IMG/VR virus record: IMGVR_UViG_2681813201_000021
Length of the DNA: 40,199 nucleotides
From: a virus
Taxonomy: Duplodnaviria; Heunggongvirae; Uroviricota; Caudoviricetes
Direction: 5' to 3' (one strand)
Positions 8,401 through 40,199 of the stretch are shown one piece after another (the first letter of the stretch is position 1; the number at the start of each line of letters is the position of its first letter). Under the pieces are notes generated by a model. That model searched no databases. It was not told the DNA's origin and worked only from the letters and a program-made list of their open reading frames with translations. Both the position numbers and the translations under genes were made by a program.

Positions 8401-8889
8401 ATGAGTCTTTTGAATGAAGTTCAGAAATTCATTGAAGCCCATCCGGGCTGTACTTCCGGAGATATTGCGGATGCTTTTGCAGGTTACTCACGGCAGCGCG
8501 TTCTGCAGTCAGCAAGCAAGTTACGTCAGAGTGGGCGTGTGGCTCACCGTTGTGAAGGGGATACACGCAGACATTTCCCGCGCCTGACTGAGAGAGCGCA
8601 GGAGCCGGAACCACAACCAGTTCGTGAAACCAGACCTGTGCGCAATTTCTATGTCGGCACTAACGATCCACGGGTGATTTTGTGCCTGACCCGCCAGGCT
8701 GAAGAACTGGAGTCCAGGGGCCTATACCGTCGTGCTGCAACGGTGTGGATGGCGGCATTCCGTGAAAGCCACTCCCAGCCAGAACGAAACAATTTTCTGG
8801 CGCGTCGTGAGCAGTGCTTACAGAAAAGCAGCAAGCGCGCTGCATCGGGTGAAGAGTGGTATCTGTCAGGGAATTACGTGGGGGCTTAA
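8401..8889 (+). CDS. Hypothetical regulator (PerC-like C-terminal segment, tentative)
   Basis: ATG 8401 with RBS AGGGGGTG; LESRGLYRRAATVWMAAF segment resembles PerC-family proteins (recollection only). Confidence 0.35.
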   Translation: MSLLNEVQKFIEAHPGCTSGDIADAFAGYSRQRVLQSASKLRQSGRVAHRCEGDTRRHFPRLTERAQEPEPQPVRETRPVRNFYVGTNDPRVILCLTRQAEELESRGLYRRAATVWMAAFRESHSQPERNNFLARREQCLQKSSKRAASGEEWYLSGNYVGA

Positions 8890-9542
8890 TGAGTAATAAA
8901 TATTGCCAGGCGCTGGTGGAACTGCGGAACAAACCAGCCCATGAACTGAAGGAAGTGGGCGATCAGTGGCGCACGCCGGACAACATTTTCTGGGGAATTA
9001 ACACCCTGTTTGGCCCGTTTGTTCTGGATCTGTTCACTGACGGTGATAACGCCAAATGTGCTGCGTATTACACGGCGGAAGACAACGCGCTGGCGCATGA
9101 CTGGTCAGAACGTCTTGCGGAGCTAAAAGGTGCTGCCTTTGGTAATCCCCCATACAGCCGCGCCAGTCAGCATGAGGGGCAATACATCACCGGCATGCGT
9201 TACATCATGAAACATGCCAGTGCCATGCGTGATAAGGGCGGGCGCTATGTTTTCCTGATCAAAGCTGCCACCAGCGAATTGTGGTGGCCGGAAGATGCAG
9301 ATCATATTGCTTTTATTCGCGGGCGTATTGGTTTTGAACTGCCTGCCTGGTTTATCCCGAAGGATGAGAAGCAGGTGCCGACAGGCGCTTTCTTCGCTGG
9401 TGCTATTGCTGTTTTCGACAAGACCTGGAAGGGACCGGCAATCAGCTACATCGGGCGCGATGAACTTGAGGCATGTGGTGAGGCGTTTCTGGAGCAGGTT
9501 CGTCAGCAGGCGGAAAAACTGGTCAGGGAGATGGCGGCATGA
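8889..9542 (+). CDS. Phage DNA N6-adenine methyltransferase (Dam-like)
   Basis: NPPY catalytic motif (GNPPYSRA); start ATG 8889 overlaps upstream stop (TAATG). Confidence 0.8.
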   Translation: MSNKYCQALVELRNKPAHELKEVGDQWRTPDNIFWGINTLFGPFVLDLFTDGDNAKCAAYYTAEDNALAHDWSERLAELKGAAFGNPPYSRASQHEGQYITGMRYIMKHASAMRDKGGRYVFLIKAATSELWWPEDADHIAFIRGRIGFELPAWFIPKDEKQVPTGAFFAGAIAVFDKTWKGPAISYIGRDELEACGEAFLEQVRQQAEKLVREMAA

Positions 9543-9865
9543 CGACGTTAACTCAATGCCAGCAGCAGGTGCTGGATATGCTGATTTCTTATCAGAAAGA
9601 ACGTGGTTTCCCGCCAACCAATCAGGAGGTGGCAACCATGCTGGGATACCGTTCGGTGAATGCAGCGGTGGAGCATCTTCGTGCGCTGGAGAAAAAAGGC
9701 GTCATCACGATAAAGCGTGGCGTGGCCCGGGGGATAACGCTTCATACCGCGGTGAAGGACGACGACAGCGAGGCGGTCGGGATTATCCGCTCACTGCTTG
9801 CCGGTGAGGAAAACGCCAGGCTGCGTGCAGCCCACTGGTTACATGAGAGGGGCCTGAAAGTATGA
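9539..9865 (+). CDS. LexA N-terminal DNA-binding-domain protein lacking the peptidase domain
   Basis: 108 aa; QQQVLDMLISYQKERGFPPTNQEVATMLGYRSVNAAVEHLRALEKKGVI matches the LexA winged-helix pattern; no Ser/Lys S24 domain follows. Confidence 0.7.
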   Translation: MTTLTQCQQQVLDMLISYQKERGFPPTNQEVATMLGYRSVNAAVEHLRALEKKGVITIKRGVARGITLHTAVKDDDSEAVGIIRSLLAGEENARLRAAHWLHERGLKV

Positions 9866-10251
9866 AGCTGATTCTGCCTTTTCCGCCCAGCGTGAACACG
9901 TACTGGCGACACCCCAACAAAGGGGCGTTTGCTGGTAAGAGCCTGATAAGCGCGGCGGGGCGAAAATTCCAGAGTGCGGCGTGCGCAGCAATAGTTGAGC
10001 AGCTACGTCGTCTGCCGAAACCAACGTCGGCACCTGCTTCAGTGGAGATCGTGTTGTTTCCTCCGGATAACCGGATCCGCGATCTGGACAACTATAACAA
10101 GGCGCTGTTTGACGCCCTGACCCACGCGGGGGTGTGGGAAGACGACAGTCAGGTGAAAAGAATGCTGGTGGAGTGGGGACCGGTTATCCCGGAAGGGAAG
10201 GTCGAGATCACTATCAGTAAGTACGAGAAAACGGCGGGTGCAGCTGGCTGA
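9862..10251 (+). CDS. rusA: RusA Holliday-junction resolvase
   Basis: 129 aa; LPFPPSVNTYWRH ... RDLDNYNKALFDALTHAGVWEDDSQV matches RusA catalytic core. Confidence 0.9.
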   Translation: MKLILPFPPSVNTYWRHPNKGAFAGKSLISAAGRKFQSAACAAIVEQLRRLPKPTSAPASVEIVLFPPDNRIRDLDNYNKALFDALTHAGVWEDDSQVKRMLVEWGPVIPEGKVEITISKYEKTAGAAG

Positions 10252-10270
10252 GCAAAAGGAGAAACGAAGT

Positions 10271-11080
10271 ATGAATAATCTGATGGTCATTGATGGTATT
10301 GAAGTTCGTCGTGATGCTTATGGGCGTTACAGCCTGAACGATCTGCATCGCGCAGCAGTAGCATCTGGTGCAAATGCCAGAACCAAGGAGCCAGGAAAGT
10401 TTCTTTCCAGCCAACAAACTGTTGAACTTGTTCATGAATTGACCAACACCCAGAATTTGGGTGTTGACCCGGTGAGTGTGATTCATGGGGGAAATGAACG
10501 GGGAACTTATGTCTGCAAGGAACTGGTGTATGCCTATGCAATGTGGATCAGCCCGTCATTCCATCTGAAGGTGATCCGTACTTTCGATATGGTAACCAGC
10601 GCACCGGAAAAATTATCCGGGCAGGCTGCTGACAAGATGCAGGCTGGAGTGATTCTGCTGGACTTTATGCGCAGGGAGTTAAACCTGTCTAACTCTTCAG
10701 TGCTTGGGGCCTGTCAGAAACTCCAGGAGGCTGTTGGCTTACCGAATCTGGCACCGCGCTATGCCATTGATGCTCCTGCTGACGCGCCTGATGGCTCAAG
10801 CCGCCCCACGCTGTCACTGAGTGCATTGCTGAAGCAGTATGGTATCCGCCTGACAGCTAATCAGGCATATCACCAGATGGTGAAGCTGGGGATCGTCGAG
10901 CAGCGCGAACGATACAGCCGTACCGCGATTAACAACATCAAAAAATTCTGGTCACTGACAGCGAAAGGCTGCATGTTCGGCAAGAACATCACCAGTCCCG
11001 CAAATCCGCGCGAGACGCAGCCGCATTTCTTCGAATCCCGATTCCCTGAGCTGTTAAAGCTGCTCGATACCGTACATTGA
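10271..11080 (+). CDS. KilA-N domain protein / putative antirepressor
   Basis: RBS AAGGAGA before ATG 10271; N-terminal KilA-N-like region; C-terminal part unassigned. Confidence 0.6.
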   Translation: MNNLMVIDGIEVRRDAYGRYSLNDLHRAAVASGANARTKEPGKFLSSQQTVELVHELTNTQNLGVDPVSVIHGGNERGTYVCKELVYAYAMWISPSFHLKVIRTFDMVTSAPEKLSGQAADKMQAGVILLDFMRRELNLSNSSVLGACQKLQEAVGLPNLAPRYAIDAPADAPDGSSRPTLSLSALLKQYGIRLTANQAYHQMVKLGIVEQRERYSRTAINNIKKFWSLTAKGCMFGKNITSPANPRETQPHFFESRFPELLKLLDTVH

Positions 11081-11081
11081 G

Positions 11082-12077
11082 GTGACCGTGAGAGCACTAC
11101 TGACCCCTGAAATTGCCCCGCGTATGGGGATCGTATTGTTCAGACCAGGTTCAGAGCTGATGCCCCTGTTTATGCAGGGGCGTGTCCTGCTGGAGCCTGA
11201 GCCGGAACGTTATTCATCTTTCGCCAGTGGTGCCGTTCCGGCGGCATCACAACCGCTGGCGGATGATCCTACCGTTCGGGCCGTGTTCCGCAATGAGGCA
11301 GTGATCCGTCGTGCTGGTGGCGTGGAATGTCTTGAAAGCTGGTTACTTCGTGAAAAAGGCTGCCAGTGGCCTCATTCCGACTGGCACAGCGAGAACATGA
11401 CCACAATGCGACACGCTCCGGGTGCAATCCGTCTGTGCTGGCACTGCGATAACCAGCTGCGCGATCAGTTCACGGAACGGCTGGAATCAATGGCAACGGA
11501 TAACTGTGCCCGCTGGGTGTTGTCTGTTGTGCGTCGGGATCTCGGTTTTGATGACAGTCACGTTGTGACAATGCCGGAACTGTGCTGGTGGCTGATTCGT
11601 AATGACCTGGCGGATGCCTTACCGGAAAGTGCAGCCCGTAAGGCACTGAGATTACCGAAGCCTGTTGTGCCGTCTGTCACCCGGGAAAGTGACCTTGTGC
11701 CTTCGGTTCCTGCCACCAGCATCATCCAGGATAAGGCGAAAAAGGTGCTGGCGCTGAAAGTGGATCCGGAGTCGCCGGAGTCTTTTATGTTACGCCCAAA
11801 ACGTCGCCGCTGGGTTAATGAAAAGTACACGCGCTGGGTTAAGACACAGCCGTGTGCATGTTGTGGAAAGCCCGCTGATGATCCCCACCACCTGATAGGT
11901 TACGGTCAGGGTGGAATGGGAACAAAAGCGCATGACCTTTTTGTGTTGCCTTTGTGCAGAAAGCATCACGACGAGCTGCATGCGGATACCGTGGTATTTG
12001 AAGAAAAGTATGGCTCTCAGTTGGAGCTGATATTTCGTTTTATCGATCGTGCGCTGGCAATTGGCGTGCTGGCCTGA
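11082..12077 (+). CDS. DUF968-like phage protein with C-terminal HNH-like Cys/His motif
   Basis: 331 aa; C-terminus CACCGKPADDPHHLIGYG...CRKHHDELH; start uncertain (GTG at 11082). Confidence 0.55.
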   Translation: MTVRALLTPEIAPRMGIVLFRPGSELMPLFMQGRVLLEPEPERYSSFASGAVPAASQPLADDPTVRAVFRNEAVIRRAGGVECLESWLLREKGCQWPHSDWHSENMTTMRHAPGAIRLCWHCDNQLRDQFTERLESMATDNCARWVLSVVRRDLGFDDSHVVTMPELCWWLIRNDLADALPESAARKALRLPKPVVPSVTRESDLVPSVPATSIIQDKAKKVLALKVDPESPESFMLRPKRRRWVNEKYTRWVKTQPCACCGKPADDPHHLIGYGQGGMGTKAHDLFVLPLCRKHHDELHADTVVFEEKYGSQLELIFRFIDRALAIGVLA

Positions 12078-12095
12078 TTTTTGTGGGGTAAGTTG

Positions 12096-12440
12096 ATGCG
12101 TGATATGTATGAAGTATTGGACCGCTGGGGAGCATGGGCTGCAGCAGACAACAGTGGTGTGGACTGGCAGCCGGTAGCAGCAGGCTTCAAGGGGCTTTTA
12201 CCTCATGGCAAAAAGTCACGGATTCAGTGTGATGATGACGAAGGCATTATGATAGACAGTTGTGTGGCTCGGTTGAGAAAGTATAAACCAGAGGAATATG
12301 AGCTCATCATAGCCCACTTTGTTATTGGTATCTCATTACGCACTATTGCCAAAAGGAGAAGGTGCTCTGATGGCACTATTAGGAAGGAGTTGCAAACCGC
12401 AATCGGTTTTATAGAGGGGGTTGTAAGTATACTTGTGTAA
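12096..12440 (+). CDS. Putative late-gene regulator in Q position (C-terminal HTH, sigma-70 region-4-like)
   Basis: Last regulatory ORF before the late region; C-terminal ISLRTIAKRRRCSDGTIRKEL helix-turn-helix; start at ATG 12096. Confidence 0.4.
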   Translation: MRDMYEVLDRWGAWAAADNSGVDWQPVAAGFKGLLPHGKKSRIQCDDDEGIMIDSCVARLRKYKPEEYELIIAHFVIGISLRTIAKRRRCSDGTIRKELQTAIGFIEGVVSILV

Positions 12441-12467
12441 AATAATAAAAGGCGGTAGTACCGCCTT
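12438..12467 (-). terminator. Rho-independent terminator of the minus-strand three-gene operon (also ends the plus-strand Q-like gene)
   Basis: Stem AAGGCGG / CCGCCTT with 5-nt loop (12449-12467); on the minus strand it is followed by UUAUUAUUUUA. Confidence 0.65.
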
Positions 12468-13080
12468 AATGATCGAATCGTTGTATGTTTTCATGGAATC
12501 TACAAAAGTGAATAGATATTTTGAATAGTAAAATGTAGAAACCAACTTGACTTAAAGTTATGGCTTTGCATTTATCATTCAAGAGTTTTTGTAATTCTTC
12601 CGTTGGTAATTGGTATACATCATCAAGAAAAACGATGCATTCTTCTAAGTTGTCTGATTCAGGAAGATAAAAAATATTAGTAATTAACTGCTTCCTTATA
12701 GCATCAATTTTGCTATCTATTGAAGTCTTAGAAACTCCGTTGGAGAGAAGAATAGCTTCGAACTTAGATAAACTTACTAACGGAGCAAAGACTGCACGCA
12801 TTGGCACATCACGATTATTACTTGTATCTATATCGCAACTGTTGCTTAATATAATGCCTCGTGTTTTTTTAGTCCCTTTAATTGAATATACTGTAAGCTC
12901 CTTAAATATATCTCCCTGAAGTGCAGCATTTTTCAGATCATCATGATAATTGCTAAGGTAGTAGTTAGTGTTTTCAGGGAAATCTCTAAGTGCATTTATT
13001 AGCCCTTCTTTTTGATGAGCTGTTAAATAATATGGAATTTGATCTTTGAATTTCTCGATATCAAAAATGTTATTACTCAT
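12466..13080 (-). CDS. Hypothetical protein C of AT-rich operon (204 aa)
   Basis: ATG 13080 lies one codon after the stop of gene B in the same frame; low GC; no recognisable catalytic motif. Confidence 0.6.
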   Translation of the reverse strand: MSNNIFDIEKFKDQIPYYLTAHQKEGLINALRDFPENTNYYLSNYHDDLKNAALQGDIFKELTVYSIKGTKKTRGIILSNSCDIDTSNNRDVPMRAVFAPLVSLSKFEAILLSNGVSKTSIDSKIDAIRKQLITNIFYLPESDNLEECIVFLDDVYQLPTEELQKLLNDKCKAITLSQVGFYILLFKISIHFCRFHENIQRFDH

Positions 13081-13083
13081 CAC

Positions 13084-13428
13084 TTAATCCAAGTATAAAT
13101 CCCACAGTGAAGCATGAACGACTTTATTTATTTCACTGCCTAAAGACACCTGGTTTGTCGATAATTTTTCATAAAAGTTTGTCATCGAGACTGCAAGTCT
13201 TTGATCAACTGAGATTGTGCTCCCTGCTTTATATGTTTGTGTGATGGAATGAACTGAATCGGTAGTTGAAGACTTATACTCCAAAGCGTGATTTTTGACG
13301 ATTAAACTTTGTTGAGGACCATGCTGTTGATTTTGGGCAATGTCTGTTAATGCAGTTATATGCAGACCATATAAAACCAAAGTTAATACTTGAAGTTGAG
13401 CTCGATAAACATGATGAGACGGATACAT
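13084..13428 (-). CDS. Hypothetical protein B of AT-rich operon (114 aa)
   Basis: ATG 13428 preceded by GGTGG RBS, 15 nt after stop of gene A; no recognisable motif. Confidence 0.55.
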   Translation of the reverse strand: MYPSHHVYRAQLQVLTLVLYGLHITALTDIAQNQQHGPQQSLIVKNHALEYKSSTTDSVHSITQTYKAGSTISVDQRLAVSMTNFYEKLSTNQVSLGSEINKVVHASLWDLYLD

Positions 13429-13443
13429 ATCATACCACCATTT

Positions 13444-14193
13444 CTATTTGTAGGATGGTTCTAGTTCTTGAATTGTTGACTCTTTAAGGCAACTAAAGAA
13501 AGCTAATTTATTACAGGAGTGAAGATCATCAAGAATTTTTTTTGGTTCGTTTTTAAACTTATCTATTTCATCAGTATTAGTGATTTGCCTAATGCTGTCT
13601 ATGTCTAGGATTAGTCCTTTTTTATTAAATTCTCCATTATCTGACATGACTAAAGCATGAGATAATATTTGAATTATATTTAGAAATGCGCCTTCATTTT
13701 TATCGATTCTGATATTGATCGGATAATTAGACATAGACTCGCCAGCCATATTTAAGCTGACGTTTAGCTTATCAAATAAATTAGAATCGTCTTCTTTTGG
13801 GAAAAAATCTACATACTTTAATGAGTAGCGGATGATGTTGTCATTTAAATTTAATTTGTTAAGCTCATTTAATACATGAATGATTTTTTCTCTAAAATGA
13901 CTCCACCCTTGATATTTGGTGCTGGTGGATACAACAACACCATGGTCACTTAGTCCAATATAGTACCCTTCGATTTCGAGGCGACTGACAACTGCGTAAT
14001 GTAATTGTTCATCTCCCTCACGAACATTTTTAGGTATTTGACTGGGTGGTAAACTAATTACTGGTTTTGTACAACCTAGAGCGTGAAAAAGAAACCCTGG
14101 AACTATTTCCGATATTTGTGTTTCTTTAGAAAAACGCATTTCGAAAGCAGCTTCGATTACTGGTTGTTTTGATAGAGATGTTGGAATGAGCAT
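13444..14193 (-). CDS. Hypothetical protein A of AT-rich operon (249 aa)
   Basis: First gene of the operon; N-terminal PVIEAAFEMRF recalls an uncharacterised family (possibly TIGR04255-like; recollection, unverified). Confidence 0.6.
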   Translation of the reverse strand: MLIPTSLSKQPVIEAAFEMRFSKETQISEIVPGFLFHALGCTKPVISLPPSQIPKNVREGDEQLHYAVVSRLEIEGYYIGLSDHGVVVSTSTKYQGWSHFREKIIHVLNELNKLNLNDNIIRYSLKYVDFFPKEDDSNLFDKLNVSLNMAGESMSNYPINIRIDKNEGAFLNIIQILSHALVMSDNGEFNKKGLILDIDSIRQITNTDEIDKFKNEPKKILDDLHSCNKLAFFSCLKESTIQELEPSYK

Positions 14194-14420
14194 TTAAAAC
14201 CCATAGTATGTTTTATGAGCTGATTGGATTTTGAGCATAGCTACCGCACGAATCTTCGAGGAAGATCCAAACATGTGCCTAATGTCGCATCATGCTCAAG
14301 GCGGCATAAATTTTGTTTACTGAGTATAAGATTAACAACCATTAACTTCCATCAAAAATGCTAACGCGTACGCAAAAACTATTGTATCGTGTTAAGAGTG
14401 GTCACTTCGCCACACAGCTT

Positions 14421-14451
14421 AAACCCGCCGTCGAGCGGGTTTGTCGTTTCT
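14421..14451 (+). terminator. Hairpin terminator in late leader region (tR'-like)
   Basis: Stem AAACCCGC / GCGGGTTT, loop CGTCGA, tail GTCGTTTCT; sits between the Q-like gene region and the holin. Confidence 0.5.
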
Positions 14452-14593
14452 GGCCCCGGCTATTTGTTGAGCCTGGTCTATACCGCAGTTATCCATTGGC
14501 TCGGCCTCTTTTACGTTTCCGCTTCTGATTTGCGGTACATGATGTTCCCTCAATTTGCACCTCCTGTATTGGCGAGGTGAGAGATAACTACAA

Positions 14594-14920
14594 ATGCCTC
14601 ATAACCCAAATACCTGGCTGGAGTTGGTCCAGAGCTGGTGGCGTGGAGACACACCGCTGGGCGCAGTGATTATGTCGATTGTTATGGCTGGTTTACGTAT
14701 TGCCTATTTTGGCGGTGGTGGCGGCTGGAAGCGAAAAACACTCGAAATTCTACTCTGTGGCGCTCTGACGCTGACTTTTGCATCCGCTCTTGAGTATGTC
14801 GGATGGCCTAAATCACTATCTGTTGCCATTGGTGGTGGGGTGGGGCTGATCGGTGTCGATGCTATTCGTGGGGCTGCAATGCGAGTAATCGGTAACAAAT
14901 TTGGTGGCTCTAAGGAGTAA
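14594..14920 (+). CDS. Holin
   Basis: 108 aa with hydrophobic transmembrane segments and charged C-terminus, immediately upstream of the endolysin; RBS GAGGTGAGAG. Confidence 0.7.
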   Translation: MPHNPNTWLELVQSWWRGDTPLGAVIMSIVMAGLRIAYFGGGGGWKRKTLEILLCGALTLTFASALEYVGWPKSLSVAIGGGVGLIGVDAIRGAAMRVIGNKFGGSKE

Positions 14921-31717: not shown

Positions 31718-32142
31718 TGGAACTGTGGCTGACGGTGAACGGTAAACGCACCTGCGCCAGCGCACCGCTGGATCCGCTGACCCGCGCCGTGGTGATTTCC
31801 CTGTTTACCTGGCGGCGGGCGGAGCCTGATGACAACGCCGACGTCCCGATGGGATGGTGGGGGGATACCTGGCCTGCGGTACAGAATGACCGTTACGGCT
31901 CCCGACTGTGGCTGCTTCAGCGCAGCAAACTGACCAATCAACTGGTGCAGACGGTAAGGGGATATATCCGCGAATGCCTGCAATGGATGATTGATGACGG
32001 CGTGGTGTCCCGTATTGATCTGGATATCCGCCGCACCGGGATTAATGAACTGGGTAACAGTATCACTCTCTGGCGTCGTGACGGACCGGTAATGATTTCT
32101 TTTGATGATCTGTGGAGTGCGATAACTCATGGCGGACAGTGA
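31714..32142 (+). CDS. Baseplate protein (Mu gp46 / GPW-like)
   Basis: 142 aa; position. Confidence 0.7.
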   Translation: MMELWLTVNGKRTCASAPLDPLTRAVVISLFTWRRAEPDDNADVPMGWWGDTWPAVQNDRYGSRLWLLQRSKLTNQLVQTVRGYIRECLQWMIDDGVVSRIDLDIRRTGINELGNSITLWRRDGPVMISFDDLWSAITHGGQ

Positions 32143-33187
32143 ATTTCAGCGCCCGACGCTGGCAGAAAATATCAGTATGCTCCGTAACGATTTATTCGCC
32201 AGGCTGGACGTCAGCGACACGCTCCGGCGCATGGATGAAGACGTGCGGGCAAAGGTGTATGCGGCGGCGCTGCATACGGTTTACGGGTACATCGATTATC
32301 TGGCAATGAATATGCTGCCTGACCTGTGCGATGAGTCCTGGCTGGCGCGACATGCTGCGATGAAACGGTGTCCGCGCAAGGGGGCCACGGCTGCCAGCGG
32401 GTATATGCGCTGGGAAGGTGTCAGCGATGGCCTGAAGGTGACTGCCGGGAGCGTGATTCAGCGCGATGACCTGGTTCAGTACACGGCAACTGCCGATGCA
32501 ACCAGCTCCGGTGGTGTCCTGCGTGTGCCGATCACTTGCTCAACTACAGGCGCGGTCGGTAACGCTGACGACGGTACGGCATTAATCCTGGTCACGCCGG
32601 TGAATGGTCTGCCGTCTTCCGGTGTGGCTGACACCCTGACAGGCGGATTTGATACTGAAGAGCTGGAAACGTGGCGCGCCCGCGTCATTGAGCGGTATTA
32701 CTGGACGCCTCAGGGCGGGGCTGACGGGGACTATGTCGTCTGGGCTAAAGAAGTGCCAGGCATTACCCGTGCATGGACATACCGCCACTGGATGGGAACG
32801 GGAACTGTCGGTGTGATGATTGCCAGCAGTGACCTGATTAATCCCATTCCGGAAGAATCAACGGAAACGGCAGCAAGACAACATATCGGGCCACTGGCCC
32901 CGGTGGCAGGCTCTGATTTGTATGTATTCAGGCCGGTGGCACATACGGTGGATTTTCATATCCGCGTGACGCCGGACACACCAGAAATACGGGCTGCCAT
33001 TACCGCGGAGTTGCGTTCGTTCCTGCTGCGTGATGGTTATCCGCAGGGAGAACTGAAGGTGTCACGTATCAGTGAAGCGATTTCCGGTGCGAACGGGGAA
33101 TACAGCCATCAGTTGCTTGCACCGGCGGACAATATCTCCATTGCAAAAAATGAACTGGCGGTACTGGGGACGATTTCATGGACGTGA
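32129..33187 (+). CDS. Baseplate J-like protein (Mu gp47-like)
   Basis: 352 aa; position. Confidence 0.8.
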
Positions 33188-34398: not shown

Positions 34399-34582
34399 TC
34401 CTGTTACTTTGACTGAAGTAATCCCCGGTCTTCATGACGTGACCGGGGCTGTTGAATTACCAGAAGATAACTGGTTTTTTACTGCATCTGAAATCCCTGA
34501 AGGAATGGAAATATCTGTTAACGAGAAGGGAGAACCCATTCTGATTGAGATTAAACCGTCTCAGGAGGAACTGGCCAGATGA
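34385..34582 (+). CDS. Tail fibre assembly protein (short; GTG start)
   Basis: GGAGGG RBS 8 nt before GTG 34385; N-terminal RLFNPVTL typical of Tfa proteins. Confidence 0.5.
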
Positions 34583-35156
34583 CATCTGGCGCGGTGCTGG
34601 TATCTGTTGCCATCACCGCGTCAGTGTAATCCAGCACGGCGTTAAGTCGGGTGTTTTCTGCCTGCGTCAGCTTCCGCCCGGCCTGCAATTTCAGTTGAAT
34701 CAGACTAATGGAAACCATTGCAGCATCAATCAGCGACTGCCGCTGTGTTTCTGCCATGTCTACTGCTGCTCTATGCTGTGCCTCGGTATCCGTCACCCAT
34801 TTCTCACCATCCCATTTATCGTATGGCGTTAACGGGGCGATAGTGGTTGTCTTTTCAGGGTAATCACCCGGAGCTGTGATTTCTTTTGATTCTCCTGTTT
34901 CGGTGCTATAGACGATTTCACCGCGATGGTCTGGCACATATTCCCATGAGTTAAAATCTGCAGAACGGCAAATTGCATAACCAGCTTTATATGAGCCAGG
35001 AGCATCTAAACAGGAACATGCCGGGATACCGACACCCACAGCAAGATATTCAGTTGATGTGGAAATATATTCCCGCGTTTCACCATCATAATTATAAATG
35101 GTAATGTCTCCCGCTTTTATGGCAATGAGTTCGTTATTTAATACGGCTTTATTCAT
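34551..35156 (-). CDS. Tail fibre assembly protein (alternative, in inverted orientation)
   Basis: 201 aa; C-terminal ...[16 protein letters not shown] Tfa signature; convergent with plus-strand tfa. Confidence 0.8.
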   Translation of the reverse strand: MNKAVLNNELIAIKAGDITIYNYDGETREYISTSTEYLAVGVGIPACSCLDAPGSYKAGYAICRSADFNSWEYVPDHRGEIVYSTETGESKEITAPGDYPEKTTTIAPLTPYDKWDGEKWVTDTEAQHRAAVDMAETQRQSLIDAAMVSISLIQLKLQAGRKLTQAENTRLNAVLDYTDAVMATDTSTAPDVIWPVPPETV

Positions 35157-35661
35157 CAGGCAGCCCTCACGATATAATTAAAGGCAATGTTACGAGGTCT
35201 GTTTTCTGTCGCTGTAGGAACAACTCTTGAGACATCCAAATTAGCGTAAATATGACGATCTGTTATAGAAACTGATGACTTACCTGTAGATTCAGCTTTT
35301 ATCACAACGGAATCATACATTCCCTCATCATTCCCAAAAAATGCACCAGAGCCATTGCCAAAAAAATACAGTGCTGATATTTCATGCCTTGCACCAATTG
35401 TCCCCGTGATATTTCTGATTGCATCTCCCTGAGAGTTCAATATAGTTCGGCCCGAATCAACCCCACGCCCGTCATCCCAGCCGCGAATAAATTCACCGCG
35501 TAAATCAGGCAATTTATTTGTCGGGTAAGCCTTTGCCAGTTCCGGGTATTCTTCAGCAGAAAAAGCCGCACCATTGCATTTCAGCCAGCCTGTCGGCGGA
35601 GTGGCGGAAGGCCACGGAACAGGCACACCGACAGGTAATGCAGAGCCTTCTCCCAAACCAA
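35156..35661 (-). CDS. Alternative tail-fibre variable C-terminal segment (no own start; expressed only after inversion)
   Basis: Reads from crossover site: ...VGLGEGSALPVGVPVPWPS...GWLKCNGAAFSAEEYPELAKAYP...NIAFNYIVRAA, typical fibre C-terminal domain; stop overlaps tfa' start (ATGA). Confidence 0.7.
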
Positions 35662-35673
35662 CGTTTATGAAAA
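35648..35673. other. Invertase crossover site (right), minus strand reads TTTTCATAAACG TT GGTTTGGGAGAA
   Basis: Matches hixL at about 20 of 26 positions as recalled from memory; shares 15 identical bp with the left site in inverted orientation. Confidence 0.75.
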
Positions 35674-35727
35674 TGAAGAAATAACAAGCAAATGGCATCA
35701 TTCCTGCTTTTACCAGGGGGATTTAAC

Positions 35728-36282
35728 ATGCTTATTGGCTATGTACGTGTATCAACAAATGACCAGAATACCGATCTACAACGCAATGCGCTGAACTGTG
35801 CAGGGTGTGAGCTGATTTTTGAAGACAAGATAAGCGGTACAAAGTCCGACAGACCAGGACTGAAAAAGCTGCTCAGGACATTATCGGCAGGTGACACGCT
35901 GGTGGTCTGGAAACTGGACCGACTGGGGCGCAGTATGCGGCATCTTGTCGTGCTGGTGGAGGAGTTGCGCGAACGAGGCATCAACTTTCGTAGTCTGACG
36001 GATTCAATTGATACCAGTACCCCAATGGGGCGCTTTTTCTTTCATGTGATGGGTGCCCTGGCTGAAATGGAGCGTGAACTGATTGTTGAACGAACAAAAG
36101 CTGGACTAGAAGCAGCTCGCGCACAGGGACGAATTGGTGGACGTCGCCCCAAACTTACACCAGAACAATGGGAGCAGGCCGGACGATTAATTGCATCAGG
36201 CGTTCCTCGCCAGAAGGTGGCGATCATCTATGATGTTGGTATATCGACACTGTATAAGAAGTTTCCGGTCGGAGATAAATGA
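35728..36282 (+). CDS. pin: Serine DNA invertase (Pin/Gin/Hin/Cin family)
   Basis: MLIGYVRVSTNDQNTDLQRNAL... with catalytic Ser in the YVRVST motif; close to e14 Pin as recalled; C-terminal HTH. Confidence 0.9.
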   Translation: MLIGYVRVSTNDQNTDLQRNALNCAGCELIFEDKISGTKSDRPGLKKLLRTLSAGDTLVVWKLDRLGRSMRHLVVLVEELRERGINFRSLTDSIDTSTPMGRFFFHVMGALAEMERELIVERTKAGLEAARAQGRIGGRRPKLTPEQWEQAGRLIASGVPRQKVAIIYDVGISTLYKKFPVGDK

Positions 36283-36342: not shown

Positions 36343-37161
<819 letters not shown>

Positions 37162-37522
37162 TCATTGCAAGGGCTCACAACCAGTAGTGTTGAGAAAACC
37201 ATCGGAGAAATGAGGCTAAGCCTTTGAATTTACATAGTACAAAAAAGATACTTTTCCTCATAATGTGAGCTAATTTTATGTTTCGTTTGATGATTGGACC
37301 GGTCTCGAAAACCGTAGACACATAGTATGCGTTAATTTATGAACAAACTACTTGTCTGCTGTTTTTCTGTCATTAGTCGTATATAGAATGATTCTCTATG
37401 CCTAACAAAGCATCACCAGTGCTAGATTACGTTGTAGTCACTGTTTAAATATCCAGATAAAACATTTCCTTCTGGGTTGAATGAGTGATAAAGTTTCACC
37501 CATTAGACCCCTTGGAGGAATT

Positions 37523-38956
37523 ATGTCTGAATTTGAAGTGTTGGCACAGCATCTGCTGAAGGAAGCCGAGGCGGAAGAAAAGCTGCGACAGGAAAATGAT
37601 AAAAAGCTTATCGAGAAAGTGCTGGAAATCTATGATCAGAAGTATGTGGCTGAATTACTGAGAAAAGTCGGAAAAAATGAGTGGAGCCGTGAAACCATTA
37701 ACCGCTGGATTAATGGCAAGTGTTTACCAAAATCGTTGACTTCAGTAGAAGAGTCTCTTCTGCGTAAGATGCTACCAGAACCACCTGCAAACCATCCGGA
37801 ATATGCTTTCCGCTTCATTGACTTATTTGCTGGAATTGGAGGGATACGGAAAGGTTTTGAGGCCATTGGAGGCCAGTGTGTTTTTACCAGTGAATGGAAT
37901 AAAGATGCTGTGCGTACATACAAGGCCAACTGGTTTAACGATGAACAGGTGCATAAATTCAATCTCGATATTCGGGAAGTCACGCTGAGTGATAAAACCG
38001 ATGTATTGGAAACGGATGCTTATGCATATATTGATGAGCATGTGCCGGATCATGATGTGCTTCTTGCGGGGTTTCCGTGCCAGCCATTTAGCCTTGCTGG
38101 TGTTAGTAAGAAAAACTCACTTGGTCGTGCGCATGGTTTTGAATGTGAAGCACAAGGAACACTTTTTTTTGACGTGGCACGTATTATACGAGCAAAAAAA
38201 CCGGCAATTTTTGTGCTGGAAAATGTCAAAAATCTGAAGAGCCATGATAAGGGTAAAACTTTCAAAGTCATTATGGAGACCCTTGACGAGCTGGGCTACG
38301 AAGTTGCCGATGCTGCAGAAATGGGAAAAAACGATCCAAAGATTATCGATGGGAAGCATTTTTTGCCTCAGCATCGTGAACGCATTGTTCTGGTCGGATT
38401 TAGACGAGATCTGAATATTCACAAGGGGTTTACCTTGCGTGATATCAGTCGTTTTTATCCGGAACACCGCCCATCATTTGGTGAATTGCTGGAGCCTGTA
38501 GTCGACAGTAAATATATACTTACGCCAAAACTATGGGAGTACCTTTATAACTACGCCAAAAAGCATGCAGCCAAGGGGAATGGTTTTGGCTTTGGGTTGG
38601 TCAATCCTGAGAATAAGGAAAGCATTGCACGCACACTTTCTGCCAGATATCACAAAGACGGATCAGAAATTCTTATTGATCGTGGTTGGGATATGGCAAC
38701 GGGAGAGGCTGACTTTATGAATGAGAGTAATCAGGCTCGTCGACCACGCAGGCTGACTCCCCGAGAGTGCGCACGCCTTATGGGATTTGAAAAACCTGGA
38801 GGGAAACCATTCCGTATTCCGGTTTCAGATACTCAGTCATATCGGCAGTTCGGTAACTCAGTTGTGGTGCCAGTATTTGAAGCTGTTGCCAGACTTCTGG
38901 AACCCTATATCCTCAAAGCTGTTTCTGCTGATGCTGGTAAGACTGGGCAGCCTTGA
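37523..38956 (+). CDS. ecoRIIM: DNA cytosine-5 methyltransferase, M.EcoRII-like (CCWGG family)
   Basis: Motifs [10 protein letters not shown] (I), GFPCQPFS (IV), ENVKNL (VI); sequence closely follows M.EcoRII/Dcm as recalled; RBS GGAGG before ATG 37523. Confidence 0.9.
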
Positions 38957-38990: not shown

Positions 38991-40199
38991 CTATGATAGT
39001 TCAGCGTAAAGCTCTATCAGCTCAGTAATGAATGCTCCGAGCGTTATTAATTCTTCTCTAACTGCTTCTGGGTATTTTTTATGTAAAGTTGATGGTACAA
39101 CGAGTCTGACACCAGCATCTTTCATTTCTCGGTATTGTGCTGAAGAAACACCTTCTTGCAGTGTAAATAAATGTACCTGATGGATTTTATCTGCTTCATT
39201 CAGTATCTGACGCCAGCGATCTTTGCAGGTGGTCTTTACTGCCAGCATACGTAAGTTTTCTACAGGAAATTCAACGTTATGATATGCCTCTGCTGAAGGA
39301 AACAGGAAATCTGGTTTTTTATTACCTTCAGTAACTGCCTGAGTGGAGAAATGCCGTAGTCCGTGCTCGATAAAAAGCTTCTCTAGGTGAAGTTCAAGTG
39401 ATTTGCCTGCCCTTGATTTACGTCGATTACTGACAGAGTTGGCTAATGCAATAAACTCATCTACAGAATCGAATCCTTTCTTAATAATATCAAGAACATG
39501 TAATTCCTCGACGAGTAGAAAAATATCATACTCGACACGCCGACGGTCAATCAGTTGCTCATCTGGATCCTTGGAGTTTTTAGCATAATGGCCAGCAGCA
39601 TATTGAATAATTTCGTTTCCAGAAGGAAAACGCTTCTTCCAGTCTTCAGGAATAACATATTTATGATTTACTGGAGTTTGCTGAAGAGACAATCCGCCCA
39701 AAATTTGTCCGGCAGGGCCGGAAATTAGGGTTCCAGGTATGATTTCGCCAATAGCAGACTCGATGATATCCTCTTCATCGGGATTGACGCAGACCCATAT
39801 ATCTACCTCGGAACAGTCAGTGTTCTGTTCGTTTAACCTGAAAGCAAGAATTGTGAGGGCTCCTGTATTTTCAGGGTTCTGTAATGGACTTCCTCTCCCC
39901 CAGCGCGTAATTCTTTTTTCGTTTCGGGTCTTACCAAAATAACGGTTGTTGTAATAAATTGCGCGTGCTTGGGTATCAGGGCAATCATGGGATGATACAT
40001 GCGCAGTAAGGAAGACTGAAGGGTTCAGTTCGCGAGTATGATTGATAGATGGAAAAAGCTTTTCAACGATATTTGAGGGGATATAAAGTCCGACCTGATG
40101 GCCACCTGTTGCGCCTGTGTCGTTTGCAGAAAGGCGTTTGATGTAGATAAAGTAATTCCCGCTTGCGATATCAAGCAGCCAGTTATGAAAAACCGACAT
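38991..40199 (-). CDS. ecoRIIR: Type IIE restriction endonuclease, EcoRII-like
   Basis: 402 aa; N-terminus MSVFHNWLL...YIKRLSANDTGATGGHQVGLYIP and most of the length follow R.EcoRII as recalled; start codon is the last 3 nt of the window. Confidence 0.9.
   Translation of the reverse strand: MSVFHNWLLDIASGNYFIYIKRLSANDTGATGGHQVGLYIPSNIVEKLFPSINHTRELNPSVFLTAHVSSHDCPDTQARAIYYNNRYFGKTRNEKRITRWGRGSPLQNPENTGALTILAFRLNEQNTDCSEVDIWVCVNPDEEDIIESAIGEIIPGTLISGPAGQILGGLSLQQTPVNHKYVIPEDWKKRFPSGNEIIQYAAGHYAKNSKDPDEQLIDRRRVEYDIFLLVEELHVLDIIKKGFDSVDEFIALANSVSNRRKSRAGKSLELHLEKLFIEHGLRHFSTQAVTEGNKKPDFLFPSAEAYHNVEFPVENLRMLAVKTTCKDRWRQILNEADKIHQVHLFTLQEGVSSAQYREMKDAGVRLVVPSTLHKKYPEAVREELITLGAFITELIELYAELS

Follow-up and report, generated by a model that had tools for sequence, protein, structure and literature searches.

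The window analyzed here is a whole stretch of 40,199 nucleotides of viral DNA (IMG/VR record IMGVR_UViG_2681813201_000021; Caudoviricetes) belonging to an SfIV/mEp460-like temperate phage, and the element under study is a small gene of its early region, here called mini-LexA, that lies between a phage dam gene and rusA (Table 1). An integrase gene occupies positions 1-1164, a gene for a cI-like repressor with helix-turn-helix (HTH) and S24 domains lies at 5599-6225, and 3' of a pR-like promoter the genes run rightward in unbroken order, encoding CII-like, HTH_36/DnaD-like replication, PerC-like, Dam, mini-LexA, RusA, KilA-N, DUF968/HNH-like, and Q proteins; beyond Q are the lysis, head, and contractile-tail genes. 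Mini-LexA is a small phage DNA-binding protein in which a LexA-type winged helix is followed by a linker and a two-helix hairpin, and it most likely serves as a RecA-insensitive, dimeric, sequence-specific DNA-binding regulator made in lytic development.

The Pfam LexA_DNA_bind profile (PF01726) aligned over its full extent (positions 1-65 of 65) with mini-LexA residues 1-65 at 69 bits (E 2.9e-19), and phmmer against PDB sequences matched residues 2-69 to E. coli LexA's DNA-binding domain (E 7e-16). A hand count on the latter alignment gave 34 identical residues out of 68 (~50%). No Pfam match to the S24 domain (PF00717) was found in the protein, which ends at residue 108, and its score against the LexA equivalog TIGR00498 was 70.8 bits vs. 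a cut-off of 110.95, with profile positions 1-91 of 203 covered. The first-pass annotation of this DNA, which had described the 108-amino-acid (aa) product as the N-terminal winged helix of LexA without its S24 autoprotease domain, proved correct on both points. Since mini-LexA has no S24 domain, no Ser119/Lys156 catalytic dyad, and no functional Ala84-Gly85 cleavage loop, activated RecA cannot inactivate it. The 108-aa protein of phage 1720a-02 is named "SOS-response repressor and protease LexA" in GenBank (KF030445.1, 34757-35083), a mis-annotation because mini-LexA has no protease domain, and the "LexA repressor and protease" label found in some records should not be copied.

Helix 3 of mini-LexA has the pattern RSxNAAxEHLxAL, which is that of gamma/beta-proteobacterial LexA. 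The DNA-contact residues of E. coli LexA are given as S39, N41, A42, E44, and E45 in PMC3091678 and PMC13416735, and the roles of individual residues rest on secondary citations. Alignment showed that mini-LexA retains four of these five (S39, N41, A42, and E45), with E44 replaced by V; R28 is likewise replaced, by N, and the wing residue R64 is invariant in the mini-LexA family.

The winged helix is followed by a family-specific C-terminal hairpin (aa 75-102), which the first-pass annotation missed. Positions 82, 83, 86, 87, 100, and 101 of the hairpin are always large and hydrophobic in the 11 mini-LexA lineages compared (11/11), and A97 and L101 are invariant across them. The tail is kept in relatives only 39-49% identical overall and, taken alone, matched PHROG 362 only (E 1e-13). 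The helix at residues 75-87 displays two adjacent hydrophobic stripes, which exceed the area that would be buried by pairing with the second helix, and in the structural model these stripes may represent a surface for dimerization or docking. The hairpin probably replaces the C-terminal domain of LexA as the dimerizing element. E. coli LexA (PF01726; PDB 1LEA/1LEB, 3JSO) has an S24 protease/dimerization domain, whereas mini-LexA has an unrelated two-helix tail, is phage-encoded within an early lytic operon, and is without SOS-box autoregulation of its own. The BlaI/MecI repressors (PDB 1okr), which dimerize through a three-helix domain and are inactivated by proteolysis, have no sequence relation to mini-LexA.

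On its own, the LexA DNA-binding domain represses poorly. The LexA-based bacterial two-hybrid system reads dimerization of a fused partner from the repression that a fusion to this domain exerts on a wild-type SOS operator, in sulA-lacZ (PMC10761746), and therefore an architecture of domain plus dimerizer is known to work as a non-cleavable SOS-box repressor. Mini-LexA resembles these fusions in joining a LexA-type domain to a heterologous, in its case putative, dimerizer; the fusions, however, are artificial and contain the true E. coli domain, to which that of mini-LexA is only ~50% identical.

The mini-LexA gene was present in 2233 of 5426 complete E. coli genomes (~41%), in up to four places per genome, and 2222 of the 5426 had intact copies, with 80% or more of the gene covered. 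One E. coli chromosome carried a 100% match to the window gene, and in these genomes the Prokaryotic Genome Annotation Pipeline (PGAP) names the product "LexA family transcriptional regulator" or "LexA family protein." Fifty phage records were at least 90% identical in DNA to the window gene (97.6-98.2% among the 25 matches listed), with carriers that include SfIV, mEp460, and Stx2c-converting phages; SfIV gp43 and mEp460_046, the latter annotated as "LexA DNA binding domain protein," belong to the same family as the window copy (97.9-98.2% DNA identity). Protein clusters of 2527 and 782 members were 97-98% identical to the window mini-LexA, and its residues 1-108 aligned with positions 1-106 of 106 of PHROG 362 ("transcriptional repressor"; E 1.4e-59). 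Judged by these matches, nothing sets the window copy apart within a prophage family that is catalogued, very common, and named by similarity. Full-text literature searches found no paper on the enterobacterial mini-LexA protein. Broken relatives were also seen: in Shigella flexneri CP182557.1 (L083, 211-533), mini-LexA, rusA, and KilA-N are each split by frameshifts into two pieces in different frames, and in SfIV (L002, 32198-32593) rusA is interrupted by a stop codon while mini-LexA is intact.

Divergent forms of mini-LexA (44-67% identity) occurred in prophages of Citrobacter, Kosakonia, Buttiauxella, Enterobacter, Cedecea, and Klebsiella. A genome scan yielded six useful enterobacterial loci and then mostly loci resembling genuine host lexA, with the match limited to the N-terminal part; a scan of viral contigs for related loci returned 99-100% identical copies and added no diversity. 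In all six divergent loci, including those of Citrobacter, Kosakonia, and Buttiauxella, rusA lies directly 3' of the mini-LexA gene, and across them mini-LexA is less conserved than RusA or the DUF968 protein. Ratios of non-synonymous to synonymous substitution (dN/dS) were 0.07-0.18 in close mini-LexA pairs, and the gene is therefore under purifying selection and encodes a selected protein rather than a remnant. Of the full-length LexA-type proteins open to comparison, those most similar to it (e.g., Halomonas and Marinospirillum loci, P0146) share 55-58% identity over the domain; since this exceeds the ~50% shared with E. coli LexA, mini-LexA is not a recent capture of the host lexA gene.

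Other proteins recovered with the family differ in architecture. P0001, P0121, P0052, P0077, P0080, and P0166 resemble chimeras or frameshift products. Eight proteins of ~140-220 aa (P0132, P0133, P0152, P0153, P0156, P0160, P0163, and P0164) carry two tandem LexA-type domains and no S24 domain, i.e., they are single-chain pseudo-dimers, and in P0213 a LexA-type domain is apparently fused to an HNH/AP2-like nuclease segment (judged by eye). From their sequences, the tandem-domain and nuclease-fused proteins look like other routes to LexA-fold proteins without S24.

The stop codon of dam and the start codon of mini-LexA overlap as ATGA, as do the stop codon of mini-LexA and the start codon of rusA. 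Since ATGA overlaps are a usual sign of translational coupling, we infer that the gene is translationally coupled between its two neighbors. The pR-like promoter is the sole + strand promoter-like site from the cI-like repressor gene to position 13406; none was found between 6296 and 13406. Because of this, mini-LexA is most simply read as a delayed-early gene that would be silent in the lysogen, within a cI-repressed operon that we infer to include it. The idea, raised by the first-pass annotation, that the prophage might hold SOS boxes in a non-inducible state in the lysogen is therefore unlikely, since no promoter-like site belongs to the gene itself, which sits inside the cI-repressed early operon; moreover, a constitutive SOS block would be hard to square with a prevalence of 41% among complete E. 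coli genomes.

Table 1. Features of the window that bear on mini-LexA and its surroundings (positions are those of the window).
Feature	Position	Strand	Details and basis
Mini-LexA coding sequence	9539..9865	+	108 codons, ATG start, TGA stop; list of open reading frames (ORFs), Pfam PF01726, PHROG 362
LexA-type winged HTH domain, aa 1-69	9539..9745	+	helices 6-22, 28-35, 40-52; strands 56-58, 66-68
Recognition helix region, aa 39-52	9653..9694	+	SVNAAVEHLRALEK; E. coli LexA counterpart SPNAAEEHLKALAR; alignment
Linker, aa 70-74	9746..9760	+	predicted local distance difference test (pLDDT) <50 at residues 71-73; variable columns
Two-helix hairpin, aa 75-102, putative dimerization element	9761..9844	+	helices 75-87, 93-102; block pLDDT 86-87
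Shine-Dalgarno AGGGAG	9525..9530	+	8 nt 5' of mini-LexA ATG; read from sequence
Upstream phage Dam N6-adenine methyltransferase gene	8856..9542	+	Pfam PF05869, E 3e-45
Downstream RusA Holliday-junction resolvase gene	9862..10251	+	Pfam PF05866
pR-like promoter TTGACC-17-TAGCAT	6268..6296	+	consensus match only; likely start of mini-LexA operon
PD-T4-3 homologue	36343-37116	-	PADLOC E 2.4e-140; Pfam LEM-3-like GIY-YIG
EcoRII-like methylase	37481-38956	+	convergent with EcoRII-like endonuclease, 38991-40199 (-)
Three ORFs in AT-rich insert	12466-13083, 13084-13428, 13444-14193	-	between Q and the lysis genes

If the hairpin dimerizes the protein, a palindromic operator could take up both wings. 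The gene is probably transcribed from the cI-controlled rightward promoter together with the delayed-early genes, so that mini-LexA would be made only after induction or infection, at the time when host LexA is being destroyed. In the mechanism we favor, it would bind LexA-like (CTGT-type) operators as a RecA-insensitive repressor and, while the phage grows lytically, would again silence part of the SOS regulon or other elements under LexA control. Candidate targets are SOS toxins that dampen prophage induction (TisB, for example), LexA-controlled antirepressors carried by rival prophages, and colicins. Canonical SOS boxes are plausible as its operators, at least in the case of the E. coli allele, although we put this a little short of an even chance. 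The wider proposal is doubtful: that mini-LexA from a fired prophage re-represses SOS boxes and shuts off SOS functions harmful to the phage, so that many lambdoid prophages end the very SOS response that induced them. The functions so shut off would be TisB-type ATP-depleting toxins, error-prone polymerases, colicin lysis genes, and antirepressors of rival prophages. A selective rationale exists for a phage to silence SOS genes, because in Salmonella TisB, an SOS toxin, depletes ATP and thereby reduces prophage induction (PMC12626290). If re-repression of SOS boxes does take place, the SOS response of induced cells would be reshaped by a prophage gene that is very common, and this would affect mutagenesis, persistence toxins, the release of colicins, and the induction of prophages resident in the same cell, Stx2c-converting phages that carry the gene among them.

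The first-pass annotation had suggested a non-cleavable binder of SOS boxes. The RecA-insensitive architecture, the four retained contacts together with R64, and purifying selection support that suggestion in part, whereas several results weigh against SOS boxes as the target. All 11 mini-LexA lineages have a non-acidic residue at position 44 (V, A, T, F, Y, or L), so that the loss of E44 is general in the family, whereas E44 is present in 16 of the 18 proteobacterial longer LexA-type relatives sampled, among which it is position 45 that varies (E, D, Q, S, and M). Positions 42-45 also differ by lineage (NAAVEHL, NTITGHL, NAATDML, NAVLLHL, and others), and the Citrobacter allele, 67% identical overall, has NTITGHL where the window protein has NAAVEHL. 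The Enterobacterales as a group use the E. coli-type SOS box, and the named sources of mini-LexA are all Enterobacterales (E. coli/Shigella, Citrobacter, Kosakonia, Buttiauxella, and Enterobacter/Cedecea/Klebsiella); drift of the helix at positions 42-45 among them is therefore not the pattern expected of a strict SOS-box reader, in which this helix should be under the same constraint as in host LexA. This drift suggests that the target can co-evolve with the protein and may be phage-borne. The exact form CTGT-N8-ACAG is absent from the whole window, a weight-matrix scan gave no SOS-like site in the early region, and the one strong site that it did give (37439-37458) lies at the prophage's cargo end, in front of an unrelated gene for an EcoRII-like cytosine methylase. 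Moreover, dimerization through the tail is a prediction, expression or binding data for mini-LexA were not found in the literature searched, and the sole studied analogue, gp6 of the Bacillus phage GIL01, binds its own non-LexA palindrome, not the host LexA box, and activates a late promoter alongside host LexA (PMC6182141).

The weight matrix used in the scan was built from 27 E. coli LexA sites. The site at 37439-37458 (CACTGTTTAAATATCCAGAT; core 37441-37456) scored 19.2 bits, for which the references are a known-site median of 20.3, a 95th percentile of shuffle maxima of 15.5, and 20.0 for the highest of 200 shuffles. The looser form CTG-N10-CAG occurred 25 times in the window vs. 9.9 expected; this excess was rejected as an SOS signal, since every spacing from 4 to 17 gave 16-36 matches, and it is unspecific because CTG and CAG codons are abundant. 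The methylase ORF downstream of the box encodes a C5 methylase with a DNA_meth_N regulatory domain, and the ATG at 37525, which follows GGAGG and is the start annotated in an IncF plasmid homologue, is probably its true start codon. In that homologue the box and the sequence downstream are kept base for base, the homology starting almost at the box, and the window region from the box onward has matches in more than 2000 plasmid records. The box may be an operator for host LexA on the promoter of a restriction-modification methylase, or the methylase's own operator, and has no evident link to the mini-LexA gene. No paper tying EcoRII-type methylases to an SOS box was found in literature searches.

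Relatives that carry mini-LexA each contained one to seven near-consensus SOS boxes (17-25 bits), counts that come from gene-carrying phages alone, i.e., are uncontrolled, and from which no association is drawn. In SfIV (L002) a box of 23.6 bits at 32639-32658 lies 438 bp 3' of the mini-LexA gene and 98 bp 5' of the annotated start of the KilA-N gene gp44 (32756), and SfIV-type genomes have an SOS-like box in this rusA/KilA-N gap. Boxes were found at 31970, 41021, 23255, and 23283 in mEp460 (L163) and at 39531, 31556, 1292, 1320, 46952, 47033, and 47056 in 1720a-02 (L164). Each of these two phages has a box inside the cI-like gene (~165 nt from its start), a box at the start of the post-Q DNA methylase, and a pair of boxes by a small integrase-adjacent gene, which is annotated as hypothetical in 1720a-02 and as DinI-like in mEp460. 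At the position that corresponds to the cI-like gene (locus position ~996), the Citrobacter locus retains the box despite its changed mini-LexA helix, and the boxes of the relatives therefore probably serve host LexA. Taken at the level of these matches, LexA-type operators are part of regulation in this phage group.

The same loss of E44 in every lineage, and the changes in blocks at positions 42-45 between alleles as similar as those of Citrobacter and the window, favor a phage-specific regulator that has the LexA fold and an operator of its own, through which it would repress or activate non-SOS promoters of phage or host. This explanation is nearly as likely as that of canonical SOS boxes. 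Mini-LexA diverges faster than its neighbors RusA and DUF968, as specificity modules often do, and there is a precedent in GIL01 gp6, which binds GaCACAC-GTGTGaC. That protein is a 66-aa truncated LexA homologue, ~44% identical to its host's LexA DNA-binding domain (PMC6182141). Like mini-LexA, gp6 is phage-encoded, consists essentially of a LexA DNA-binding domain, belongs to the early genes, and is RecA-insensitive; in contrast to mini-LexA, it lacks a C-terminal hairpin, its origin is a Firmicute LexA, and its binding has been shown, whereas the role of mini-LexA is read from sequence. BLASTP of gp6 against mini-LexA gave no local alignment at E <= 100, and the two are therefore independent recruitments of the LexA fold, alike in architecture and logic only. 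If mini-LexA does use its own operator, it would be the second independent case, after gp6, of a phage recruiting this fold. The searches for such an operator speak against it, however. A scan for inverted repeats over 4800-14700 showed nothing beyond short palindromes scattered across it and, within the replication gene, the origin iterons, and nothing was shared among palindromes in the intergenic gaps of the window and the six divergent loci. In addition, the late-gene switch is already covered by the Q antiterminator, and the E. coli allele retains four of the five LexA contact residues.

It is quite unlikely that mini-LexA is instead a DNA-binding accessory factor for phage recombination or replication, e.g., one that loads or targets RusA or the DUF968/HNH-like protein. 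The invariant adjacency of rusA across lineages would fit such a role, and winged helices of the same shape occur in DnaD and in replication initiators; however, the adjacency is not special, because the whole order from Rep and PerC through RusA, KilA-N, and DUF968 to Q is conserved. One protein, P0158, fuses a mini-LexA-type domain to the C-terminal domain of DUF968, and the HNH-like segment of P0213 could be read in the same way. P0158, however, is a singleton on one contig and is most simply a deletion artefact, since the two genes are neighbors in the same orientation, and fusion proteins were accordingly set aside as a functional clue. The signature of the recognition helix also favors a sequence-specific reading.

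The phmmer alignment to LexA reaches residue 90 and places A88-G89-E90 over the Ala84-Gly85 site (LLAGE over VAAGE). As a relic of the cleavage site this motif was rejected, since it lies in a predicted helix and other lineages have VERES, LTRKE, IDDQP, or ACSVG in its place. The activated RecA filament engages the C-terminal domain of LexA. That mini-LexA acts as a decoy or competitive substrate for the machinery that cleaves LexA and cI, which the same alignment might suggest, is extremely improbable, since the AGE motif is not conserved, the segment is predicted to be helical where LexA has a beta-hairpin loop, and LexA's C-terminal domain is absent from mini-LexA. Scarcely more credible is the idea that mini-LexA is what is left of a captured lexA gene, now in decay and without a present function, for although broken copies exist (the frameshifted S. 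flexneri locus and several chimeric or truncated database proteins), the low dN/dS, the retention of length and tail across lineages only 40-50% identical, the large number of intact copies in E. coli, the good ribosome-binding site, and the overlapping start and stop codons all argue against it.

Several other features of the prophage were noted. The right end, which in SfIV holds the gtr O-antigen genes, is defense cargo, comprising the PD-T4-3 homologue and the EcoRII-like pair. An AT-rich insert (12441-14593; 33-39% GC vs. 52-55% in its flanks) lies between Q and the lysis genes, a position typical of a moron or defense hotspot; its ORFs had no PADLOC matches (0 of 3), and no Pfam match was found for the first and third, the two scanned. 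Tandem palindromic iterons (GTCAGATTCTGAC / GTCAAAATCTGAC / GACGCATCAAAATCTGAC...) at 7759-7821, within the replication gene (7457-8398), fall where the encoded peptide is repetitive (PSKSD); they are probably the origin of the phage, which would then lie in its initiator gene, as it does in lambda O. Finally, a Gin/Hin-type serine invertase gene (35692-36282; Resolvase and HTH_7) adjoins the minus-strand tail-collar (35156-35701) and tail-fibre-assembly (34551-35156) genes, and the whole segment from 34551 to 36282 resembles a Mu G-type invertible tail-fibre segment.

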